The notes under the pieces were generated by a model. The model worked only from the letters and a program-made list of their open reading frames with translations. It was not told where the DNA came from and made no database searches. This document shows positions 1,106-64,000 of a stretch of 64,000 bases of DNA, one piece after another (positions within the stretch are counted from its first letter, which is position 1; each line of letters opens with the position of its first letter). This DNA comes from an uncultured Bdellovibrionales bacterium (GTDB taxonomy: Bacteria; Patescibacteriota; Minisyncoccia; Moranbacterales; DUUL01), in NCBI GenBank assembly GCA_964421125.1, contig CAYQVD010000002.1, forward strand, positions 13,579-77,578, given 5' to 3'. Made by a program: the position numbers and the translations under genes.

Positions 1106-1498
1106 TTATCTTACCACTTTTAAATTAATTTCCATTTTTATACCAAGGTCTTCAAGGATTTTAATTGCCTTAAACATCTCAGGCAAATTTTCCCCTGTGA
1201 CGATTCCAGATGGCTCTTTTACAATTAATTCAACATTAAATTTACCAAGCTTTGCGAAATAATCATCTTCATATACTTCAATATACTTGTTTTTGAATTT
1301 GATTGCTGGAAATATTTTTAATAAACCTTCCCCGTTCTCAACTCCTAAAACTTTTCTAAGAGGTCCCTCCCAGTTTTCACGTAAAATTGTTTTCCCACTC
1401 CTTACTTCACAAAGATAAGAATTTACACCTTTTATACGGTCCAACTTACCCATAATTTCAGCAACTTCACGTGCAATATCTTTTAATTTCTTTTTCAT
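1106..1498 (-). CDS. Hypothetical 130-aa protein.
   Basis: Clean ORF divergent from the miaB-like gene. No recognisable motif. Confidence 0.5.
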   Translation of the reverse strand: MKKKLKDIAREVAEIMGKLDRIKGVNSYLCEVRSGKTILRENWEGPLRKVLGVENGEGLLKIFPAIKFKNKYIEVYEDDYFAKLGKFNVELIVKEPSGIVTGENLPEMFKAIKILEDLGIKMEINLKVVR

Positions 1499-5561: not shown

Positions 5562-5745
5562 CTACTTACCAAAGCAATCTTACAATCCGATCTAAGCTTT
5601 TAAAATACCAACTAAAAAACTATCCTATAGTTTCCCCTTCTTGCTAGAGCGAACTTGTAGTCCTGTTCATTAATTAGGCCTTAAAACAAATCTTTAAAAT
5701 TTCTAATTGAAAATTCACTGGAAATTAAAAAATTAAAAATGAAAA

Positions 5746-8058
5746 TTAATCTCTGATCTCCCCTTCCTCCCCAACCTGATCAAGCTGAACAGAAAGAAGT
5801 TGTGAGATTCCACCATCGTTCATGGAAACTCCATAGAGAACAGTAGCTTCTTTCATGGTTTGACGATTATGAGTGACAAGCACAAACTGGGTCTTATTTG
5901 AAAGTTGTCTTAAAATTTTTCCAAATCTTTTGGAATTTGCTTCGTCAAGTGATGCTTCAACTTCATCAAGAATTGCAAATGGTGGTGGATTATGAGAAAT
6001 AATTGCGAAAAGAAGTGCAATTGAAGTCAAAGCTCTTTCCCCACCAGAAAGCATCCCAAGATTAGAAATTTTCTTTCCTGGAGGACAAGCCTTAATCTCA
6101 ATTCCAATCTGAACATCATCCTCATCAATTTCCTCAACATCCAAATCAATTTCATTACCATGTTCATCTACTTCAACGTCTTTTCCGCTAGTTCTTTTTC
6201 TTATTTCAACCTTAACCAATTCTGCTTTTCCACCATCAAAAATAATTTTAAAATATTCTGCAAACTTTTTGTTAATATTCTCAAAAGTCTCTTCAAAGCT
6301 TCCCTTAATGTTATGATCCATCTCTTTAATGATCTTCCGAAGACTTTTAATTGCTTCTTCCAAATCTCCTGATTCTTTTGAAAGAAAATCATACCGCTCT
6401 TGTGTCTCTTGATATTCCTGCAAAATTGTTTCATCAATTGCTCCAACCTGTTCAAGTTGAAATTTGAGTCGCTCAATGGCATGTTCCCATTTGTTCACAT
6501 CAACATCGATGGTCTTTTTCTCAAGTTTTTCTGGACCAATCTTCATCTCTTTTTCAATTCGAATCTGCAAATCCTCTTCTCGAACCTCCAATTTCGCAAG
6601 CTCCAATTTATAATCGTTAAATTGATCCTTCACTTTTTCAGTCTCGAATTGTTTTCTTCGAAGTTGATCTTCCAACTTAATCATTTCTCGACGTTCATCT
6701 TGATCACTCTTAACAAGCTCATTAATTTTTTCACGAATCTTTTCTCTCTTGCCTTCAATTTCATTTCTTTCTTTTTCCAGTTTTTCAACTCCTGATTGCA
6801 TTACTGAAAGCCTTTTTTGTCCCTCTTCTTGAATTGCTCTCAATTTGTCCACTTGTTTTTTCTTTTCAATCTTTCCCTTAATCACTCCTTGATGAAGCTC
6901 TGAAAGATCAATTGATATTTTCTCTGCGTAATCTTTAAGCTCTTTCAAGTCTCCAATTTTTTTCAAGGCTGAGATTTTTTCAACCAATTGACCTTGTCTT
7001 TTTTGAAGATCTTCAAGTCTTGTCCTGATGAATCCTGCATCAACTGGAATTATTTCAATTACTTTAATTTCTTTCTGTCGCTCTTTTTCAAGCTCCATCT
7101 TTCCTTGTTCGATAATCAGTTTTCTTTCCAAATCATTTGAAAAATGATTCACTTTTCGTTCTTCTTCTTCAAGTTTTTGAATTTCCTCTTGATGATCAGC
7201 TTTATTCCCAGACTCTTTACTCAATTTGTCTTTAATTTCATCAATTTCTCGTTGATTTATCATAATCTGCTTAGAAAAATCATCCCTAATTCCAGAAGAC
7301 TGATTTTTTTCAGTTTGAATCTTATTCCAAAGAAAACCAAAAAATTCATTCTGTTTTCGTTTCAAATTTGCTCGATATTCATCGCCTTTTTCTGCCTTTT
7401 GGCTTTGACGACGAAGCGTGTTGAGATGTGGTTCAATTTCAATTAAAAGTCCCTTCACTCTTTCAATATTAACCTTGGTTAATCTCAGCTTCCTCTCACT
7501 TCGATCTTTTTTAATTTGATGCTCTTTCACTCCAGCGACTTCTTCAATCATCACCCGTCGCTCCACAGGAGTTGCATTCAAAACATGATCAGCCATTCCT
7601 TGATTGATGATACAATAACTTCGTTGGCCAATTCCAGCTTTTGCAAGCATATCAACAATATCTAAAAGTCGAACCTTACTTCCATTGATAAGATATTCAC
7701 TTTCTCCACTTCGATAAATCTTTCTTGAAATCACTAAGTCATCATAATCAATTGGAATTTTTTTGGAAGAGTTGTCCAAATACATTGAAACTTGAGCACT
7801 TCCTAATTGAGATTTCTTTCCTGATCCAGCAAAAATGATATCTTCAGACTTCTTTCCTCGTAAAGTTTTCATTGATTGCTCTCCCATAGACCATTTCAAA
7901 GCATCTGCAATATTTGATTTTCCAGATCCATTTGGTCCAACAATCGCCGTGATTCCAAGGGTTTTCCCATTACTCAAAACACCAGCTTTGGAAAAATCCA
8001 GAACTGTTTTCTTTGCAAATGATTTAAAACCGCTCATTTCAAGTTTTTTTAGAAACAT
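5746..8058 (-). CDS. smc: SMC-family chromosome segregation ATPase, unusually short at 770 aa.
   Basis: N-terminal Walker A GPNGSGKSN, a long coiled coil, then C-terminal LSGGERALTSIALLFAI and the D-loop AILDEVEASLD. Confidence 0.8.
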   Translation of the reverse strand: MFLKKLEMSGFKSFAKKTVLDFSKAGVLSNGKTLGITAIVGPNGSGKSNIADALKWSMGEQSMKTLRGKKSEDIIFAGSGKKSQLGSAQVSMYLDNSSKKIPIDYDDLVISRKIYRSGESEYLINGSKVRLLDIVDMLAKAGIGQRSYCIINQGMADHVLNATPVERRVMIEEVAGVKEHQIKKDRSERKLRLTKVNIERVKGLLIEIEPHLNTLRRQSQKAEKGDEYRANLKRKQNEFFGFLWNKIQTEKNQSSGIRDDFSKQIMINQREIDEIKDKLSKESGNKADHQEEIQKLEEEERKVNHFSNDLERKLIIEQGKMELEKERQKEIKVIEIIPVDAGFIRTRLEDLQKRQGQLVEKISALKKIGDLKELKDYAEKISIDLSELHQGVIKGKIEKKKQVDKLRAIQEEGQKRLSVMQSGVEKLEKERNEIEGKREKIREKINELVKSDQDERREMIKLEDQLRRKQFETEKVKDQFNDYKLELAKLEVREEDLQIRIEKEMKIGPEKLEKKTIDVDVNKWEHAIERLKFQLEQVGAIDETILQEYQETQERYDFLSKESGDLEEAIKSLRKIIKEMDHNIKGSFEETFENINKKFAEYFKIIFDGGKAELVKVEIRKRTSGKDVEVDEHGNEIDLDVEEIDEDDVQIGIEIKACPPGKKISNLGMLSGGERALTSIALLFAIISHNPPPFAILDEVEASLDEANSKRFGKILRQLSNKTQFVLVTHNRQTMKEATVLYGVSMNDGGISQLLSVQLDQVGEEGEIRD

Positions 8059-8102: not shown

Positions 8103-8825
8103 TTACTCCCACCCTCTTGCTTTCAAACCAGCTATAGCTGCATTTCTTTGTGCTTCCTGTTTTGATTCACCCTCTCCTTCAGCAACCTTTTCCTTTCCAA
8201 GAAAAACTGCCACAGAAAATTTCTTATCATGATCTGGTCCCCATTCTTTTACAACTTCATAATGAGGAGTAACCTGATCAATCTCCTGAGCCTTTTCCTG
8301 AAAATAGCTTTTTGGGTCTCGATAACTTTTTGTTTCCAAAACGTTTGAAAGTTTTGAAATTATATATTTATTAATAAATTTATCTGCCTCTCTATATCCC
8401 AAATCAAGATGAATCGCACCAATAATCGCCTCCATTGCATTGGCAAGGATATATTGTCTTGCTTTTCCAGTATCTTTACTTTCTCCTCGTGACATAAGTA
8501 AAAATTCTTCAATTTCAATTTCCTGCCCAATTTTAGCAAGCATTTCACCATTGACAAGGGCTGCTCGCCAATTTGTAAGATCACCTTCTGGATTTTTATA
8601 ATTCGCAAACAAATATTCCGTCACTGAAAGCTCCAAAACTGCATCTCCTAGAAATTCCAACCTTTCGTTGTGTGGAAATTCGTAGTCCCGATTTTCATTA
8701 AGATAAGATCTGTGAGTTAACGCTTCCTGAAGGATTTGATAATCCTCAAATTTAAGGCCAAGTTTTTTAGCCAATCCCTTTGCTTGTTCTTGCATAACTG
8801 TTTTAACAGCCAAGATGGAAATCAT
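8103..8825 (-). CDS. rnc: Ribonuclease III.
   Basis: ERLEFLGDAVLEL signature followed by a C-terminal dsRBD. Confidence 0.9.
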   Translation of the reverse strand: MISILAVKTVMQEQAKGLAKKLGLKFEDYQILQEALTHRSYLNENRDYEFPHNERLEFLGDAVLELSVTEYLFANYKNPEGDLTNWRAALVNGEMLAKIGQEIEIEEFLLMSRGESKDTGKARQYILANAMEAIIGAIHLDLGYREADKFINKYIISKLSNVLETKSYRDPKSYFQEKAQEIDQVTPHYEVVKEWGPDHDKKFSVAVFLGKEKVAEGEGESKQEAQRNAAIAGLKARGWE

Positions 8826-50571: not shown

Positions 50572-50895
50572 AATAAATATTTTCTAAATTAATAAATCTA
50601 CTTACTTAATTTATATTACCATATATTCTAATCTTTTATTTTATTATATGGAATTGCTTTTTAAAATTATTTTTATACTGTTTTGTGTAATATTTTTTTA
50701 GTCATATTGTATTATATTTTTTATAATTTAAATCTTATCTAAAACCGAGCGAAGTAAGGTCTTAGAAAACGTTCGCGTGTCATCTGAAGTTTTTATCCCC
50801 TTTTAGCAAGATAAATTTAAATCATCAAACACACGTTCTTTATTAAACTCCGCCCAAACTCTCATCAAAACAAAAGGATGAAAATTTGGACAGAA

Positions 50896-50935
50896 GAAAA
50901 TTGACAATCCTTTAAAATATTAACTGTCAATTTTC
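50896..50935. promoter_or_regulatory. Perfect 11-bp inverted repeat GAAAATTGACA-N18-TGTCAATTTTC. It looks like an operator for a dimeric regulator.
   Basis: Seen directly in the sequence, about 325 bp upstream of the Trx-CcdA-2 start. Confidence 0.35.
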
Positions 50936-51008
50936 TGTAGCCAAATATAAACTATTTTTTATGCGAACTTTTTATTTTTGAATAACAATACTTTATATGT
51001 TATGCGAA

Positions 51009-51908
51009 CTACTCACTCTTCCCAAATTTCTCAAAAGCTCTCAGGACTTCAAGTGGAAGTGCAAAAACAACTGTATTGGATTGATCGGAAGAAAGATCAT
51101 TAAGCGTGTGTAACGTTCGAAGGTGAAGTGACCCTACTTGTTGAGAAAGAACTCCGGCTGCCTTAGAAATATTCCCAGAAGCCACAACTTCTCCTTCGGA
51201 TTTAATGATTACCGCTCTTTTTTCTCTTTCTGCTTCAGCTTGCTTTCCAATCACTCTTTTCATTTCTTCTGGCAAAGTAACATCTTTTAGTTCAACTGAA
51301 TTGACACTAACTCCCCAAGCGTCAGTTGCTTTGTCTACAATAAGTCTAATTTTTTCAGCAATTGTGTTTCGATTTGAAAGAAGTTCATCTAAGTCAACCT
51401 CTCCAGCTACATTTCGCATAGTTGTTTGAGCCAGTTGTGAAACTGCATAAAAGAAATCTTCTACTTCAATAATTGCCTTCTCGGCATCAACAATCTTATA
51501 ATAAATAACAGCATTGACTGTCACAGAAATATTGTCTTTAGTAATTGCCTCTTGATCCGGCACGTCCACTGCCTTTATTCGCATATCAACTTTTTGGTAT
51601 GATTGGAAGACTGGAATGACAATTTTCCATCCTGGCTCCATAATTCCAGCAAATTTTCCCATTGTGAACTTCACTCCTTTTTCATATTGGTTGATTTGCT
51701 TGATAGAAATCAGCAAAACAACAATCGCGATGACAATGATTGTTAAAAATCCCATGTTTTTATTATTAATAATTAAATCTAAATTTAAAAATCCACCAAA
51801 CGAATCAAAAATAAATCCCAGAAAAATCAGCCAAAAAATCCATTTGCCTTTGCCAAGTTGATCTCCTAATTTTTTAAAATCTATTTCTTGATTATTATTC
51901 TTCCTCAT
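51009..51908 (-). CDS. SPFH/band-7 (stomatin-like) membrane protein.
   Basis: N-terminal TM and an SPFH core. Confidence 0.8.
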   Translation of the reverse strand: MRKNNNQEIDFKKLGDQLGKGKWIFWLIFLGFIFDSFGGFLNLDLIINNKNMGFLTIIVIAIVVLLISIKQINQYEKGVKFTMGKFAGIMEPGWKIVIPVFQSYQKVDMRIKAVDVPDQEAITKDNISVTVNAVIYYKIVDAEKAIIEVEDFFYAVSQLAQTTMRNVAGEVDLDELLSNRNTIAEKIRLIVDKATDAWGVSVNSVELKDVTLPEEMKRVIGKQAEAEREKRAVIIKSEGEVVASGNISKAAGVLSQQVGSLHLRTLHTLNDLSSDQSNTVVFALPLEVLRAFEKFGKSE

Positions 51909-61115: not shown

Positions 61116-61931
61116 TTAAAGTGGACTTTTAATATTCTTTAGTTTCGGATTTGTTACTTTAGTATAAATTTGTGTTGTTCTAATATTAGCATGACCAAGT
61201 AATTCTTGAACATATCTCACATCAGTTCCATTTTCAAGTAAATGCGTCGCAAAACTGTGTCGAAGTGAATGAAACGTCGCAGATTTTTTTATCCTTGATC
61301 TAATAAGTGCTACATGAAAAACTTTCTGCAATGAAGTAGTTGTTAATTTCCCTCCACGATTACTTTCGAATAAAAAATCGCCCCCATTCTTTCCTAAAAT
61401 CAAAGATTGAATTTCTTCCTTTATTTTTTCAGGAAAAACCGTAATTCGATCTTTTTTCCCTTTGGCATTTTTAATATGAATTATCAATTCTGCTAAGTCA
61501 ACATCTTTCACTTTTAAACTAACAACTTCACTCACCCTAAGACCAGCAGCATATCCCAATGAAACCATTAATTTATGCTTCAAATTTTTGATTTCGTTTA
61601 TAATTTTTTCAATCTCCCCTCTTGATAAAACAACTGGCAATTTTTGACTTCTCTTGGCACATTTAAAGTCAATCTTTTCTTTCAGTTTCAGAACTTCATA
61701 ATATAAAAATTTAACAGAATTCAATGCTAGATTAATTGTTTGAGAAGAATTTCCTTGTTTTTGTCTTTCTAATAAAAAATTTTCAATGGCCTTATTTCTA
61801 TCTTTGATATTTTCTTGCTTAGAAAAATTCAAATATTCTTTTATGTAGAATAAGTAAGCCTTTATTGTCTTTTGACTATAATTTCTTAATTTAAGTAAAT
61901 TTTCTGTTTTTTCTAGAATTGAAGATTGCAT
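61116..61931 (-). CDS. Tyrosine-type site-specific recombinase/integrase (XerC/XerD-like, short).
   Basis: C-terminal catalytic motif HSLRHSFATHLLENG...LLGH...TQIYT. Confidence 0.8.
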   Translation of the reverse strand: MQSSILEKTENLLKLRNYSQKTIKAYLFYIKEYLNFSKQENIKDRNKAIENFLLERQKQGNSSQTINLALNSVKFLYYEVLKLKEKIDFKCAKRSQKLPVVLSRGEIEKIINEIKNLKHKLMVSLGYAAGLRVSEVVSLKVKDVDLAELIIHIKNAKGKKDRITVFPEKIKEEIQSLILGKNGGDFLFESNRGGKLTTTSLQKVFHVALIRSRIKKSATFHSLRHSFATHLLENGTDVRYVQELLGHANIRTTQIYTKVTNPKLKNIKSPL

Positions 61932-61978
61932 ATTTATTTAAAAATAGTATAATCTAATTATATTTAAAATATAACATA

Positions 61979-61992
61979 AGTTCGCATAACAT
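61979..61992 (-). promoter_or_regulatory. Candidate recombinase target (att/dif-like arm) 45 bp upstream of the recombinase start.
   Basis: AGTTCGCATAACAT. Its reverse complement occurs at 50997..51010, and a 10/10 core occurs at 50960..50969. The arm resembles the E. coli dif XerC arm GGTGCGCATAA. Confidence 0.35.
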
Positions 61993-62081
61993 ACAAATTA
62001 TTGCTATTAAAAAATTAAAAGTTTAGATAAAAACCAGTTGTACGAAATTATTTTATTTTTGTTCTTAAAAATCTAAATATT

Positions 62082-62396
62082 AAAAAATCAGGAATGGGCT
62101 ACTATTTAAAACATTTAACGAGGAGGACAATATGGCTAAAATTAAAATAGGCAATTTGGTAATTCCAAAGGGGTATCGAGAAAATTGGCAAATAGGCAAA
62201 GTCATCGGCATGAAGCGCTTGGATTTAAACATCGGACCGATTCTGGTCATCATGGATTTTATTACAAGAAAATGGGTTGAAGAGTTGCCGATGCATGTCG
62301 ATAAGTTAGTCCGCGCGACATAACGCACATTCCAAACTATCGAGTTTTAATTAGGCGTATTCGTTAATCAACGTTTACGCCCATTCCTGATTTTTT
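62082..62396 (+). other. Small-ORF module bounded by perfect 18-bp inverted repeats, at 62082..62099 and 62379..62396.
   Basis: AAAAAATCAGGAATGGGC and GCCCATTCCTGATTTTTT flank the 62132..62323 ORF. Confidence 0.6.
62132..62323 (+). CDS. Hypothetical 63-aa protein with a strong Shine-Dalgarno (GAGGAGG) and a short hydrophobic core.
   Basis: AACGAGGAGGACAAT then ATG. GC is higher than in the surrounding DNA. Confidence 0.5.
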   Translation: MAKIKIGNLVIPKGYRENWQIGKVIGMKRLDLNIGPILVIMDFITRKWVEELPMHVDKLVRAT

Positions 62397-62634
62397 AATG
62401 ACAATAATGAAACAAAAATAAAATAACATCGCACAACACCGCGATAAGCGGCTACAGAAAATTTCCTTAATTACATATAATAATGAGTGAATTTTTCTTC
62501 CGACCCAAATTTCGATTCCCAATTAAATTAATAAGGAAGAATCAAAACTTCGCTTCATCGGGAAACGTTAAATGAAATAAAATTCAGACCTCTAACTCAA
62601 AAGTATTATAAATAACAATTTCTTTTTAAATGAT

Positions 62635-63327
62635 ATGCGTACAGGATTTGATATAAATTTGATTCAAGGGGATGGATACCTAGTTATTCCATTGTCTATG
62701 GTTAGATTAGGTAATAGTCAATCTCCAGAAGATACATATAAAATCTTTCATTATTTCTCTAAAAAATTAGCAACATATACGAATGATGTAATCTTGCTTT
62801 ATACAAGTGGTTTATATTTTAATGATGAAAATATAACTTATGAAAAGCGAGTTAAAATTAACGAACAAATGATAAATCATTCTTTGGCTCTTCGTAAATT
62901 AATTCAAAAGAAGAAAGAATTTATGCCGGGTGCTTTTCATTTTCTTCCAATAGATTACATCATTCTAAATTGTAAAGATTTTAGAGTATTTTTTAACAAG
63001 CTCAAAAGATTAGTTAAAACTGATGAGAAATTCAAAGAATGTGTGAAAAAAGATATGGGCAAAAGAGAATATAATGAAGCAAATGAAAATTTTATTCTTG
63101 AAGAAGTTGCAGTTGCCCATATCATAAAAGAGAGACTTGTTGAATTTCCAAGAACGCTTGTTAAAAATGATATCTGGAGATTGATTGCATATCCAGGAAC
63201 ATACATGGAAAGTGATAAGTATCAATGGAATAACAAGATTTTACCACAAAATGATATTATCAATCCTTTCCGCGGTACGCAATACGATTTTGAAAAAAAG
63301 AAATTGTTTGTCTATTCTGATATGTAG
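62635..63327 (+). CDS. Hypothetical 230-aa protein.
   Basis: Clean ORF with no motif. Confidence 0.45.
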   Translation: MRTGFDINLIQGDGYLVIPLSMVRLGNSQSPEDTYKIFHYFSKKLATYTNDVILLYTSGLYFNDENITYEKRVKINEQMINHSLALRKLIQKKKEFMPGAFHFLPIDYIILNCKDFRVFFNKLKRLVKTDEKFKECVKKDMGKREYNEANENFILEEVAVAHIIKERLVEFPRTLVKNDIWRLIAYPGTYMESDKYQWNNKILPQNDIINPFRGTQYDFEKKKLFVYSDM

Positions 63328-63685
63328 GGTCGGTCTGAATTTTACTTGCTTCACTTCGTTTCGCACCACGCTGCGCTCTCCTCCTTTCAGTCGTCGGGTC
63401 ATTTAACAGGGGATAAAAGGAAAATTGCTCGGCTCGCAATTTTCCCAAATTTTCTCCGCTACGCTACGAAAACTTCTTTTATCCCCGATGTTAGGCGATA
63501 TATTTTTGAAAAATTTGTTTTTAAAATGTTCTTGGTGGGCTTTTAAGAAATAGGGAATTAAATTTTTTTAATTTTTAAAGAGAGGGGTAAAGAGTGATTT
63601 CTTCGCTATCACTTCAAAAACGATTTATTTAAAATAACAAAACTTACATAATGATTACAATTTTAATTTATAAATAGCAATTAAT
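63328..63685. other. ORF-free GC-enriched structured segment.
   Basis: Nested inverted repeats: aggggataaaag...cttttatcccc enclosing gaaaattgc-tcggctc-gcaattttc. Confidence 0.3.
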
Positions 63686-64000
63686 ATGGATTACAAAATC
63701 ATCAAAAAATATTTAGACAAGCAAAAGATCAAAGTAATCTTATTATTAATTATGGTATTCTTTATTGCCGGTTGCAGTCAAAAAAGCGAACTGGGCAATA
63801 ATCCTTCCGATTCAGCCAAAGAGACAATTAATGAAGAAAATAAAGAAGAAACAGTGGCTTCTATTCCAGATAATCTTATTTCTTGCGATCCAGCCTACTT
63901 CAAACGCGGCACTGATGGCATAGCGCCTGACTGTGACACGTTTGAGGAAGGTAAGGTTTGTTCCTATCACACCAAAGAAAAAAATGGTGAGACTAAAATT
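63686..64000 (+). CDS. Putative lipoprotein; the 3' end lies outside the window.
   Basis: MDYKIIKKYLDKQKIKVILLLIMVFFIAGCSQ lipobox. Reading frame is open to the window end. Confidence 0.55.
   Translation, partial: MDYKIIKKYLDKQKIKVILLLIMVFFIAGCSQKSELGNNPSDSAKETINEENKEETVASIPDNLISCDPAYFKRGTDGIAPDCDTFEEGKVCSYHTKEKNGETKI

Follow-up and report, generated by a model that had tools for sequence, protein, structure and literature searches.

A 63-residue protein gene framed by an inverted repeat, the probable first cassette of an integron-like array in a Patescibacteria genome

We analysed a 64-kb window (64,000 nt of contig CAYQVD010000002.1, from an uncultured bacterium that GTDB places in the Patescibacteriota) in which a small open reading frame (ORF) of 63 amino acids (aa) is bracketed by a perfect inverted repeat. 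The ORF is probably the payload of the first cassette in an integron-like array lying beside a tyrosine recombinase of the XerA/IntI type. The array is a variant and not a canonical integron, because the recombinase is without the IntI-specific domain. More tentatively, Patescibacteria may hold an undescribed integron-like gene-capture platform that uses a single Xer/XerA-type enzyme, a dif- or attI-like site by the xer gene, and long hairpin stems that bracket the ORFs. All positions are those of the window unless a locus is named, and (-) marks the reverse strand. Related loci are labelled L005-L019 where they hold homologues of the 63-aa ORF, and L020, L021 and L022 where they hold homologues of the recombinase.

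The original prediction had placed the 18-mer AAAAAATCAGGAATGGGC at 62082-62099 and its exact complement at 62379-62396, and both are found there; the 18-mer occurs at a single locus in the window, even when 3 mismatches are allowed. Perfect complementarity extends further, to 21 bp (ATTAAAAAATCAGGAATGGGC at 62079-62099), and chance cannot account for an inverted repeat of that length and perfection within 300 nt. Outside these inner arms is a second, imperfect pair of arms (27 nt, 89% complementary), separated from the first by an unmatched 'bubble' of 15 and 11 nt. Inner and outer arms together make an interrupted inverted repeat of ~60 nt (left 63 nt, 62037-62099; right 59 nt, 62379-62437). 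These and the other features of the region are listed in Table 1.

When the inner arms of 10 cassettes were aligned over the 21 pairs, 96% of cells were paired, which none of 500 shuffles matched, and pairing fell to 38-55% in slid registers. Five pairs have changed on both sides (12 doubly changed cells), and compensatory variants such as TCAGGAATGGGC, TCAGAATTGGGC and TTAGAATTGGGC are mirrored in the opposite arm. The arms outlast synonymous sites: between the window and L012 the proportion of synonymous differences (pS) in the ORF is 0.61, and the arms are identical. Covariation supports pairing of the 5′ and 3′ flanks of the ORF in one strand, RNA or DNA. To this extent the earlier idea of pairing ends finds support; the reading as a toxin mRNA does not, as discussed below.

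Table 1. Positions of features in and around the proposed array
Feature	Position	Strand	Remarks
Tyrosine recombinase, XerA/IntI type, 271 aa	61116-61931	-	Transcribed away from the array
Promoter-like element TTGCAT-16 nt-TATAAT, candidate cassette promoter	61926-61953	+	Read from sequence; faces the array
attI-like/dif-like site	61980-62036	+	GTTCGCATAAC ATACAAATTATTGCTATTAAAAAAT, then second AGTTTAGATAAA box
Core-type box R′ GTTGTACGAAAT	62037-62048	+	Proposed crossover G|TT between 62037 and 62038
Cassette 1 (proposed)	~62038-62567	+	Starts at TT of R′, ends at first base of next R′
Outer left arm	62037-62063	+	R′ box and A/T-rich stretch; 89% complementary to 62411-62437
Inner left arm	62079-62099	+	Perfect 21 nt, covarying
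Shine-Dalgarno sequence GAGGAGG	62120-62126	+	
Gene for 63-aa protein, cassette payload	62132-62323	+	Predicted small all-beta domain
3′-untranslated-region hairpin GGCGTA...TACGCC	62354-62381	+	Adjoins right arm; read from sequence
Inner right arm	62379-62399	+	Perfect 21 nt, covarying
Outer right arm	62411-62437	+	A/T-rich stretch and inverse-core box R″ ACATCGCACAAC at 62426-62437
attC-like module 1	62426-62578	+	nhmmer match 62410-62585, E = 3.5e-35
Module 1, 5′ parts			R″; L″ 62439-62451; H2 ~62456-62498; core CCCAAATTT 62504-62512
Module 1, 3′ parts			H3; CAAAACTTCG; L′ 62551-62562; next R′ GTTAAATGAAAT 62567-62578
Cassette 2	62568-63490	+	230-aa ORF 62635-63327; own repeat 62575-62590 / 63332-63347; then module 2
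attC-like module 2	~63352-63502	+	After the 230-aa ORF; next R′ GTTAGGCGATAT from 63490

We read the 21-bp repeat as the inner part of one long interrupted stem, because of the order of elements in the cassettes (R′-arm-ORF-arm-R″-module). In full, a cassette would consist of the remainder of a core-type box R′ from its TT, an A/T-rich stretch, an inner arm, an ORF often led by a Shine-Dalgarno sequence, the complementary arm, a second A/T-rich stretch, an inverse-core box R″ and a folded, attC-like module. To compare framing among arrays, the left flank of each cassette ORF was aligned with the reverse complement of its right flank. Most cassette ORFs in such arrays, from several Patescibacteria, are bracketed by a repeat of their own. 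The repeat measures 58 nt in a NUDIX cassette (a perfect AATTCAATTAGGGCAAATTT included), 35 nt around a 57-aa ORF, 23 nt around a 67-aa ORF, 22 nt around a 95-aa ORF, about 45-60 nt and 52 nt around the 129- and 214-aa ORFs of L020, and 54 nt around the 228-aa ORF of L022. Its outer part is always formed by the boxes, R′ to the left and R″ to the right, with a conserved asymmetry between the two (GAAAT against the complement of ACATC), and its inner part is specific to the cassette. Cassette-specific inner arms imply that complementarity matters and not a common recognition sequence, which argues against terminal repeats of the transposase type.

The modules occur 3′ of the 63-aa ORF and between the small ORFs of L015 and L016, span ~150-200 nt, and keep a fixed order of elements: the R″ box ACATC(C/G)nnYAAC, the stem half L″, a variable hairpin (H2), the conserved CCAAATTTTTG, a second variable hairpin (H3), CAAAAACTTCG, the stem half L′, and a core-like R′ box, GTTRTNYGAAAT. 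R″ opens every module and the GTTRTNYGAAAT consensus closes it. A profile built from nine modules and run by nhmmer matches the window twice, at 62410-62585 and 50768-50944(-), as well as L012, L015 and L016, and L020 (two modules) and L022 beside the recombinase homologue; L021 has one module, 7 kb off its recombinase gene (516-731). Module 1 of the window is 76% identical to a module that lies between other genes in L016. In module 2 a hairpin ahead of the core was detected at 63419-63445.

The L″/L′ stem covaries. Over 12 modules it is 86% paired, 8 of its 11 pairs are doubly changed, and no shuffle of 500 did as well; compensatory examples are GGCACATGC/GCATGTGCC, GCGTGTATCTG/CAGATACACGC and CCGAATATGAG/CTCATATTCGG, and an extrahelical G recurs in the stem (CGGAT[G]ATGCC). 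Minimum free energy (MFE) folding of the module in the window favours a local L″ hairpin. Between the R″ and R′ boxes of one module no covariation was found, their pairing (62%) being no better than that of shuffles. Of 5 variable positions, 3.7 agree between the R′ box before an ORF and the R″ box after the same ORF; across a module the figure is 2.4 (p = 0.002). If a cassette is taken to begin at the TT of an R′ box and to finish on the first base of the following one, this partition of R′/R″ and L″/L′ covariation puts all partners inside a single unit.

An ORF-less cassette of 188 nt bears on the same boundaries. With its whole module it is 93% identical between L020 and L021, which carry it at non-equivalent places in their arrays; the two copies are alike from N|TTATCC (N|TTATCCAAAAT) up to CCCCA|TT, with N|TT at both ends. 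In the window, homology of the 63-aa cassette to its copies elsewhere sets in at the R′ box (62037-62045), which comes immediately after the conserved attI-like site, as expected of the most recently inserted cassette. L020, whose recombinase is the nearest relative among those examined (81% identical), begins its array with another cassette. The 230-aa ORF of cassette 2 was considered as a homologue of the first-cassette ORFs of L020 and L022 (227 and 228 aa) and shows no similarity to them.

One could instead take the modules for intergenic repeats like miniature inverted-repeat transposable elements (MITEs) or repetitive extragenic palindromic (REP) sequences, with R″ and R′ as their termini, the framing of ORFs as incidental, the recombinase as the chromosomal Xer and the adjoining site as dif. 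The modules are indeed repeated, structured and about 150-200 nt long, some lie away from the recombinase between housekeeping-type genes (50768-50944 in the window, 516-731 in L021), the recombinase is near-universal in Patescibacteria, and 61980-62014 is dif-like. We nevertheless judge this improbable. Intergenic repeats leave unexplained the cassette-specific inner arms and the A/T-rich stretches, which lie outside the module; R′ matches the R″ beyond the ORF and not its partner in its own module; the unit shared by L020 and L021 spans from the TT of R′ through insert and module to the next R′; and in L005 the 63-aa ORF keeps its arms with no module present.

The recombinase matches Pfam PF00589 and PF13495 and the NCBIfam family NF040815, 'site-specific tyrosine recombinase/integron integrase' (225 bits, cutoff 220). 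The integron integrase model TIGR02249 gave 216 bits in two stretches, below its cutoff of 265. The best match in the PDB is the Vibrio integron integrase VchIntIA (2a3v), and archaeal XerA (4a8e) aligns end to end. By phmmer, residues 4-205 correspond to residues 4-210 of 2a3v and residues 196-271 to 242-317. The catalytic motifs HxLRH, LGH and IYT are visible in the alignment with solved relatives. More than 6500 homologues are 68-81% identical, with names from Moranii-, Wolfe- and Spechtbacteria and 'Patescibacteria group', which places the host among the Patescibacteria; the enzyme is probably a conserved Xer of housekeeping grade.

In the window the recombinase gene (61116-61931(-)) diverges from the array, which begins at 62038(+), and the same arrangement is found in L020, L022 and, with a short array, L021. 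The site between them follows the pattern GTTYGYATAAYATACAAWTT..TATTAAAAAAT, then another AGTTTAGATAAA box and, after it, the first R′ box. Four species keep it beside the recombinase gene, with three direct AGTTnnnnnnAA (AGTT) boxes; L012 has it as well, and the window contains an inverted second copy. Its part at 61980-62014 resembles dif of Escherichia coli (CGCATAA, spacer, TTAT). The promoter-like element listed in Table 1 may drive the array; TTGCAY-16/17-TATAAT/TATATT is present at the equivalent place in L020, L021 and L022.

The second site copy (GTTCGCATAACATATAAAGTATTGTTATTCAAAAAT...), within the stretch 50768-51012(-), directly follows a Band_7 gene and is itself followed by a 5′-truncated module and then a DsbD_TM gene. 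The two copies face outward, with ~11 kb between them that holds Band_7, the ATP synthase operon, lepA and the recombinase gene. The pair could mark a second array start or be an inversion substrate.

We propose the following mechanism for the cassette. On circularisation, the right arm, A/T-rich stretch, R″ and module would meet R′, its A/T-rich stretch and the left arm, and the circle would form a rod made of the 21-bp perfect stem, the bubble, a 27-bp stem with the R boxes, the L stem, and hairpins H2 and H3. Recombination would then act on the ~60-bp single-strand hairpin of the free cassette. An exchange of strands at N|TT of R′, whether the partner is the attI-like site or a second module, would cut the rod open within its stem and leave one half 5′ and the other 3′ of the ORF, yielding a 'framed' gene. 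As single-stranded DNA (ssDNA), the joined cassette ends are predicted to fold as one rod (bottom strand -52 kcal/mol, top strand -48 kcal/mol, z about -9 to -10), and the bottom strand pairs the R boxes more completely than the top. The neighbouring recombinase presumably performs the exchange, on folded ssDNA and by way of circular intermediates. For cassette 1 the circular junction would read GGGAAACG|TTGTACGAAAT, and an empty site, with attI joined to cassette 2, would read ...AAAACCAG|TTAAATGAAAT.

The 21-bp arms may have a different role. As an RNA-level stem, the flanks would pair in the transcript, and cutting by RNase III or protection of the ends would give a stable monocistronic mRNA; in a variant, the arms with the GC hairpin and a U-run in the right arm could end transcription, and only the R and L boxes would serve recombination. 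Such a stem could coexist with the cassette model and is its rival solely over the role of the 21-bp arms; we regard it as possible, if rather doubtful. For the sense RNA of the framed unit the arm stem is predicted to form (-108 kcal/mol, z = -5.7), but the antisense strand folds equally well, MFE folding being without strand discrimination. One-sided changes in the inner arms are 7 G:U (G:T in DNA) against 2 A:C on the sense strand, a bias that is not significant (one-sided p about 0.09). The arms have positions like those of untranslated regions, and the right arm comes after a GC hairpin whose counterparts in homologues (GCGGGAG..CTCCCGC, with CCCAA in the loop) covary. In L005 the right arm with its U-run adjoins the stop of a convergent gene, much like a bidirectional terminator, but right arms of other cassettes have no U-run. 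A conserved promoter-like element is directed into the array. The R′/R″ asymmetry, on the other hand, pairs better on the antisense strand.

Two candidate signals in the same flanks were rejected. The right arm as an intrinsic terminator was not detected in the window and is not general among cassettes. No convincing sigma-70 promoter of the gene's own lies in the left flank; relatives have TTGAAA-14 nt-TAGAAT, whose spacer is too short and which is missing from the window copy. The CCCAA(C) loop is common to GC-rich hairpins just 5′ of right arms (L015 2610-2630 and 858-880, L005 6207-6231, L006 2721-2746), and these belong to different cassettes, with 63- and 67-aa ORFs, which hints at a shared element for recognition by RNA or protein.

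The framed ORF is a genuine protein gene that was acquired horizontally. Its product is 68-100% identical to nine database proteins of 63-64 aa; in pairwise comparisons dN/dS is 0.05-0.28, and synonymous sites are saturated or nearly so. The ORF and its GAGGAGG are as the original prediction described them, and the 'GC-richer patch' is a modest rise (0.375-0.405 against a window mean of 0.33). Within the ORF, GC is 0.40, and GC at third codon positions is 0.484 against 0.236 +/- 0.040 in other ORFs, the maximum in the window at ~6 standard deviations. The remark that most native genes have no ribosome-binding site also stands: 53 of 58 long ORFs in the window have no Shine-Dalgarno-like 4-mer within 20 nt upstream, so this genome largely does without Shine-Dalgarno sequences. 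Only the 63-aa ORF and 1106-1498(-) among the 58 have a full AGGAGG. AAGGAGG is retained in most homologous 63-aa cassettes, and AGGAGG is carried by several cassette genes of related arrays (63-, 67- and 95-aa ORFs, GNAT).

The 63-aa protein has no match in Pfam, NCBIfam, PADLOC or PHROGs, and its relatives gave only a faint SH3-like hint. The family is rare. A profile search of 1.84 billion cluster representatives returned just 26 relatives, several of which have a tandem or fused domain; a wider search added 2 marginal partial matches of doubtful relevance in GTDB genomes and 3 loci in JGI metagenomes. The protein and its homologues are net basic (9-11 K+R, 6 D+E), with a grand average of hydropathy (GRAVY) of 0.12-0.16, maximal 19-residue hydropathy of 0.84-1.07 and no segment of transmembrane (TM) grade. 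AlphaFold2 on the 9-sequence alignment gave an all-beta model at low confidence (predicted local distance difference test, pLDDT, 52), of too low a quality for a fold search. The product looks like a small beta-barrel-like, soluble domain rather than a membrane peptide.

These properties bear on the idea that the locus encodes a type I toxin-antitoxin system, with a toxic peptide, silencing by mRNA fold-back and control by an antisense RNA. A small ORF, a strong Shine-Dalgarno sequence and long-range 5′-3′ complementarity would suit it. However, the peptide is not hydrophobic: the 'hydrophobic core' noted earlier is not conserved, homologues reading LSIGPILHIRDII (HIRDII) there, and the maximal 19-residue hydropathy is 1.07. 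Relatives with a tandem or fused domain, the all-beta model for all its low confidence, the absence of a PADLOC match, and the same framing around NUDIX, GNAT and 129-230-aa ORFs also speak against a toxin. A consensus scan of 62079-62399 found no strong antisense promoter, though promoters of the candidate phyla radiation (CPR) are poorly known. We consider a type I toxin very improbable, and the toxin-like reading made from the sequence alone is not upheld.

Homologues of the 63-aa ORF are found in at least 8 unrelated genomic contexts, nearly all keeping the repeat. In L005 the framed ORF lies between two glycosyltransferase genes, with its arms and no module, and in L006 beside unrelated small ORFs, both far from any recombinase gene; L010, L014, L015-17, L018 and L019 offer further differing surroundings. 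The repeat is decayed in L009 and missing on the short contig L011. Most homologues share one layout: left arm, short AAGGAGG leader, ORF, GC hairpin with a CCCAA loop, and right arm. Between the end of the left arm and the ATG there are 24-37 nt, which include the Shine-Dalgarno sequence. Homologues in a housekeeping context without the repeats, which would have spoken against the framed unit, were not what we found; most homologues keep the repeat. In the L015 and L016 arrays, 57-, 67-, 95- and 63-aa ORFs and genes of NUDIX, shikimate-kinase-like and GNAT type all lie on one strand with modules between them.

In L018 and L019 the left arm and its leader are followed by an extra ORF before the 63-aa gene begins, and the repeat there encloses two genes. 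The 63-aa gene is thus the constant 3′ partner and the 5′ gene the variable one. The extra ORFs are unrelated (131-346 in L018, 71 aa with 2 TM segments; 298-510 in L019, a zinc-ribbon protein of 70 aa).

The locus had been likened to a miniature inverted-repeat element with a passenger peptide. ORF and repeat do travel as a unit, as the contexts above attest, but the element is not a MITE: the arms are cassette-specific, the window has one copy of the repeat, and the unit belongs to an ordered array beside a tyrosine recombinase. No target-site duplication was seen at the ends of the unit: its flanks, CCA|GTTG and CAAC|ACC, do not repeat each other directly. A fimS-like inverton, in which the enzyme flips the 279-bp segment between the repeats, might also be suggested by the spacing of about 300 bp between inverted repeats beside a tyrosine recombinase and by a weak FimB/E-type similarity in NCBIfam. 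To this we give hardly any credence, in view of the single orientation in 7 of 7 same-species contigs (several samples) and in L012 and L013, the constant polarity of the ORF relative to the asymmetric R′/R″ boxes and the bubble in every context, and the framed units far from recombinase genes in L005 and L006.

Several observations weigh against an integron-like cassette array. The boxes keep only the GTT and AAC of GTTRRRY and RYYYAAC (GTTGTAC, GTTATCG, GTTAAAT; GCACAAC, CGATAAC). The direct evidence for cassette boundaries is one cassette pair, that of L020 and L021. Two homology breakpoints fall mid-module at CCAAATTT and not at R′ (L015 ~1649/L016 ~1192; window ~62512/L012 ~814), which points either to another site of exchange or to homologous recombination where the module is most conserved. 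In L015 (2706-3292) a 175-aa GNAT acetyltransferase gene with its own Shine-Dalgarno sequence sits within the H2 loop of the module after the 63-aa ORF, closed by a 26-bp perfect stem and flanked by direct repeats GGCTCCG(C/A)CC; an ORF in a hairpin is therefore broader than the logic of R′ and R″. The 7 to 2 bias among one-sided arm changes fits a constraint on RNA at least as well as one on DNA. The location of the cassette is identical in all 7 contigs of the window's species, which gives no direct indication that cassettes are still being excised or inserted. In the recombinase, ~30-35 residues of IntI (~211-241, the IntI-specific domain) have no counterpart. The enzyme may simply be the housekeeping Xer of these bacteria and, since it is ubiquitous, the adjoining conserved site could be dif.

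Among known systems the array most resembles integrons, especially sedentary chromosomal ones. In both, a recombinase is transcribed away from a series of ORFs that share one strand and are mostly small and unannotated, NUDIX and GNAT included; they are separated by structured imperfect palindromes starting with ...AAC and ending with GTT.... Further shared features are a covarying L″/L′ stem with an extrahelical base, ORF-less cassettes, a unit that runs from the TT of a core box to the first base of the next, a conserved direct-repeat site and an outward promoter-like element between recombinase and array, and VchIntIA as the best solved relative. Unlike integrons, the array is paired with a XerA-type enzyme that is near-universal in Patescibacteria and without the IntI-specific domain, its boxes are GTTRTNYGAAAT and ACATCSNNYAAC instead of GTTRRRY and RYYYAAC, and its modules are branched, 150-200 nt long, and have a conserved central CCAAATTT. 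Complementarity between cassette start and inverse core reaches ~60 nt, with a perfect, cassette-specific stem of 15-26 bp around the ORF; some exchanges fall mid-module, and many cassettes have their own Shine-Dalgarno sequence. The long ORF-bracketing stems together with the Xer-type enzyme are the distinctive features.

There are likenesses also to elements that exploit Xer and dif, such as integrative mobile elements exploiting Xer (IMEX, e.g. CTX-phi), pdif modules, and the XerA, XerS and XerH systems: a dif-like palindrome (..CGCATAA-spacer-TTAT..) lies beside xer and accessory genes gather there. In the pdif modules of Acinetobacter plasmids each gene is reportedly bracketed by inverted recombinase sites. 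Whereas pdif alternates identical 28-bp XerC/XerD sites, here the modules and boxes keep one orientation along the arrays, the arms are cassette-specific and the elements between genes are folded structures of 150-200 nt. Long 5′/3′ complementarity around the units of a probably polycistronic transcript recalls the stalks of 16S and 23S rRNA, the RNase III sites of T7 and the Correia elements of Neisseria; here, by contrast, protein genes in a recombination-type array are framed, and processing is hypothetical. Toxin mRNAs of the hok/sok type share a small ORF with pairing ends, but here the protein is not a membrane protein, an antisense gene is not evident, and enzyme genes are framed as well.

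As quoted in PMC9668308, an integron is recognised by the IntI-specific additional domain around patch III (Messier & Roy 2001). The archaeal integron study itself required this domain (PMC9668308), and its filter would therefore skip the recombinase of the window. Standard integron tools may miss such cassettes for the same reason, that the IntI domain is required. Searches of the full-text literature found no description of integron- or attC-type arrays in CPR/Patescibacteria.

CPR/Patescibacteria have tiny genomes with few recognised mobile elements, and how they acquire accessory genes is poorly understood. If the array is a working gene-capture system, integron-type capture would extend to a very large bacterial radiation, and the system would bear on the origin of integron integrases and attC sites from Xer/dif-like systems. 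It would then be a living candidate link from Xer/dif chromosome resolution to integrons and a route of gene flux in reduced genomes. The perfect cassette-specific stems are candidates for extensions of ssDNA hairpins or for RNase III or stability elements. The signature can be searched for as a GTTRTNYGAAAT box, a bracketing stem, an ORF, the complementary stem, an ACATC..AAC box and a folded module.

Rfam returned nothing relevant, either for the whole window at gathering thresholds or for 61900-63800 at E <= 5, and a tRNA/tmRNA scan of the window found no gene. The ORF-less cassette, at L020 6100-6290(-) and L021 7700-7890(-), consists of a GC-rich hairpin-forming insert (TCCGCTCCGCTCCATTTTGGATAATGGGGCGCGGA...) and a short module, and could encode a small RNA. 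L005 holds an intergenic 29-nt hairpin-forming repeat (CATTCCCGTGAAAACGGGAATCTAGAAAA) at 5739-5767 and 8619-8647, its copies 96.5% identical; it is REP-like and unrelated to the modules. The first cassette of L022 (7045-7731(-)) encodes a protein of the cyclodipeptide synthase family (PF16715), an unusual accessory function for a CPR genome. Elsewhere in the window, the 130-aa ORF at 1106-1498(-), which has no family match, is bracketed by an inverted repeat of its own (1100-1113 / 1522-1535; 14 nt, 93%). With no module nearby, 1100-1535 may be a solitary cassette-like unit.

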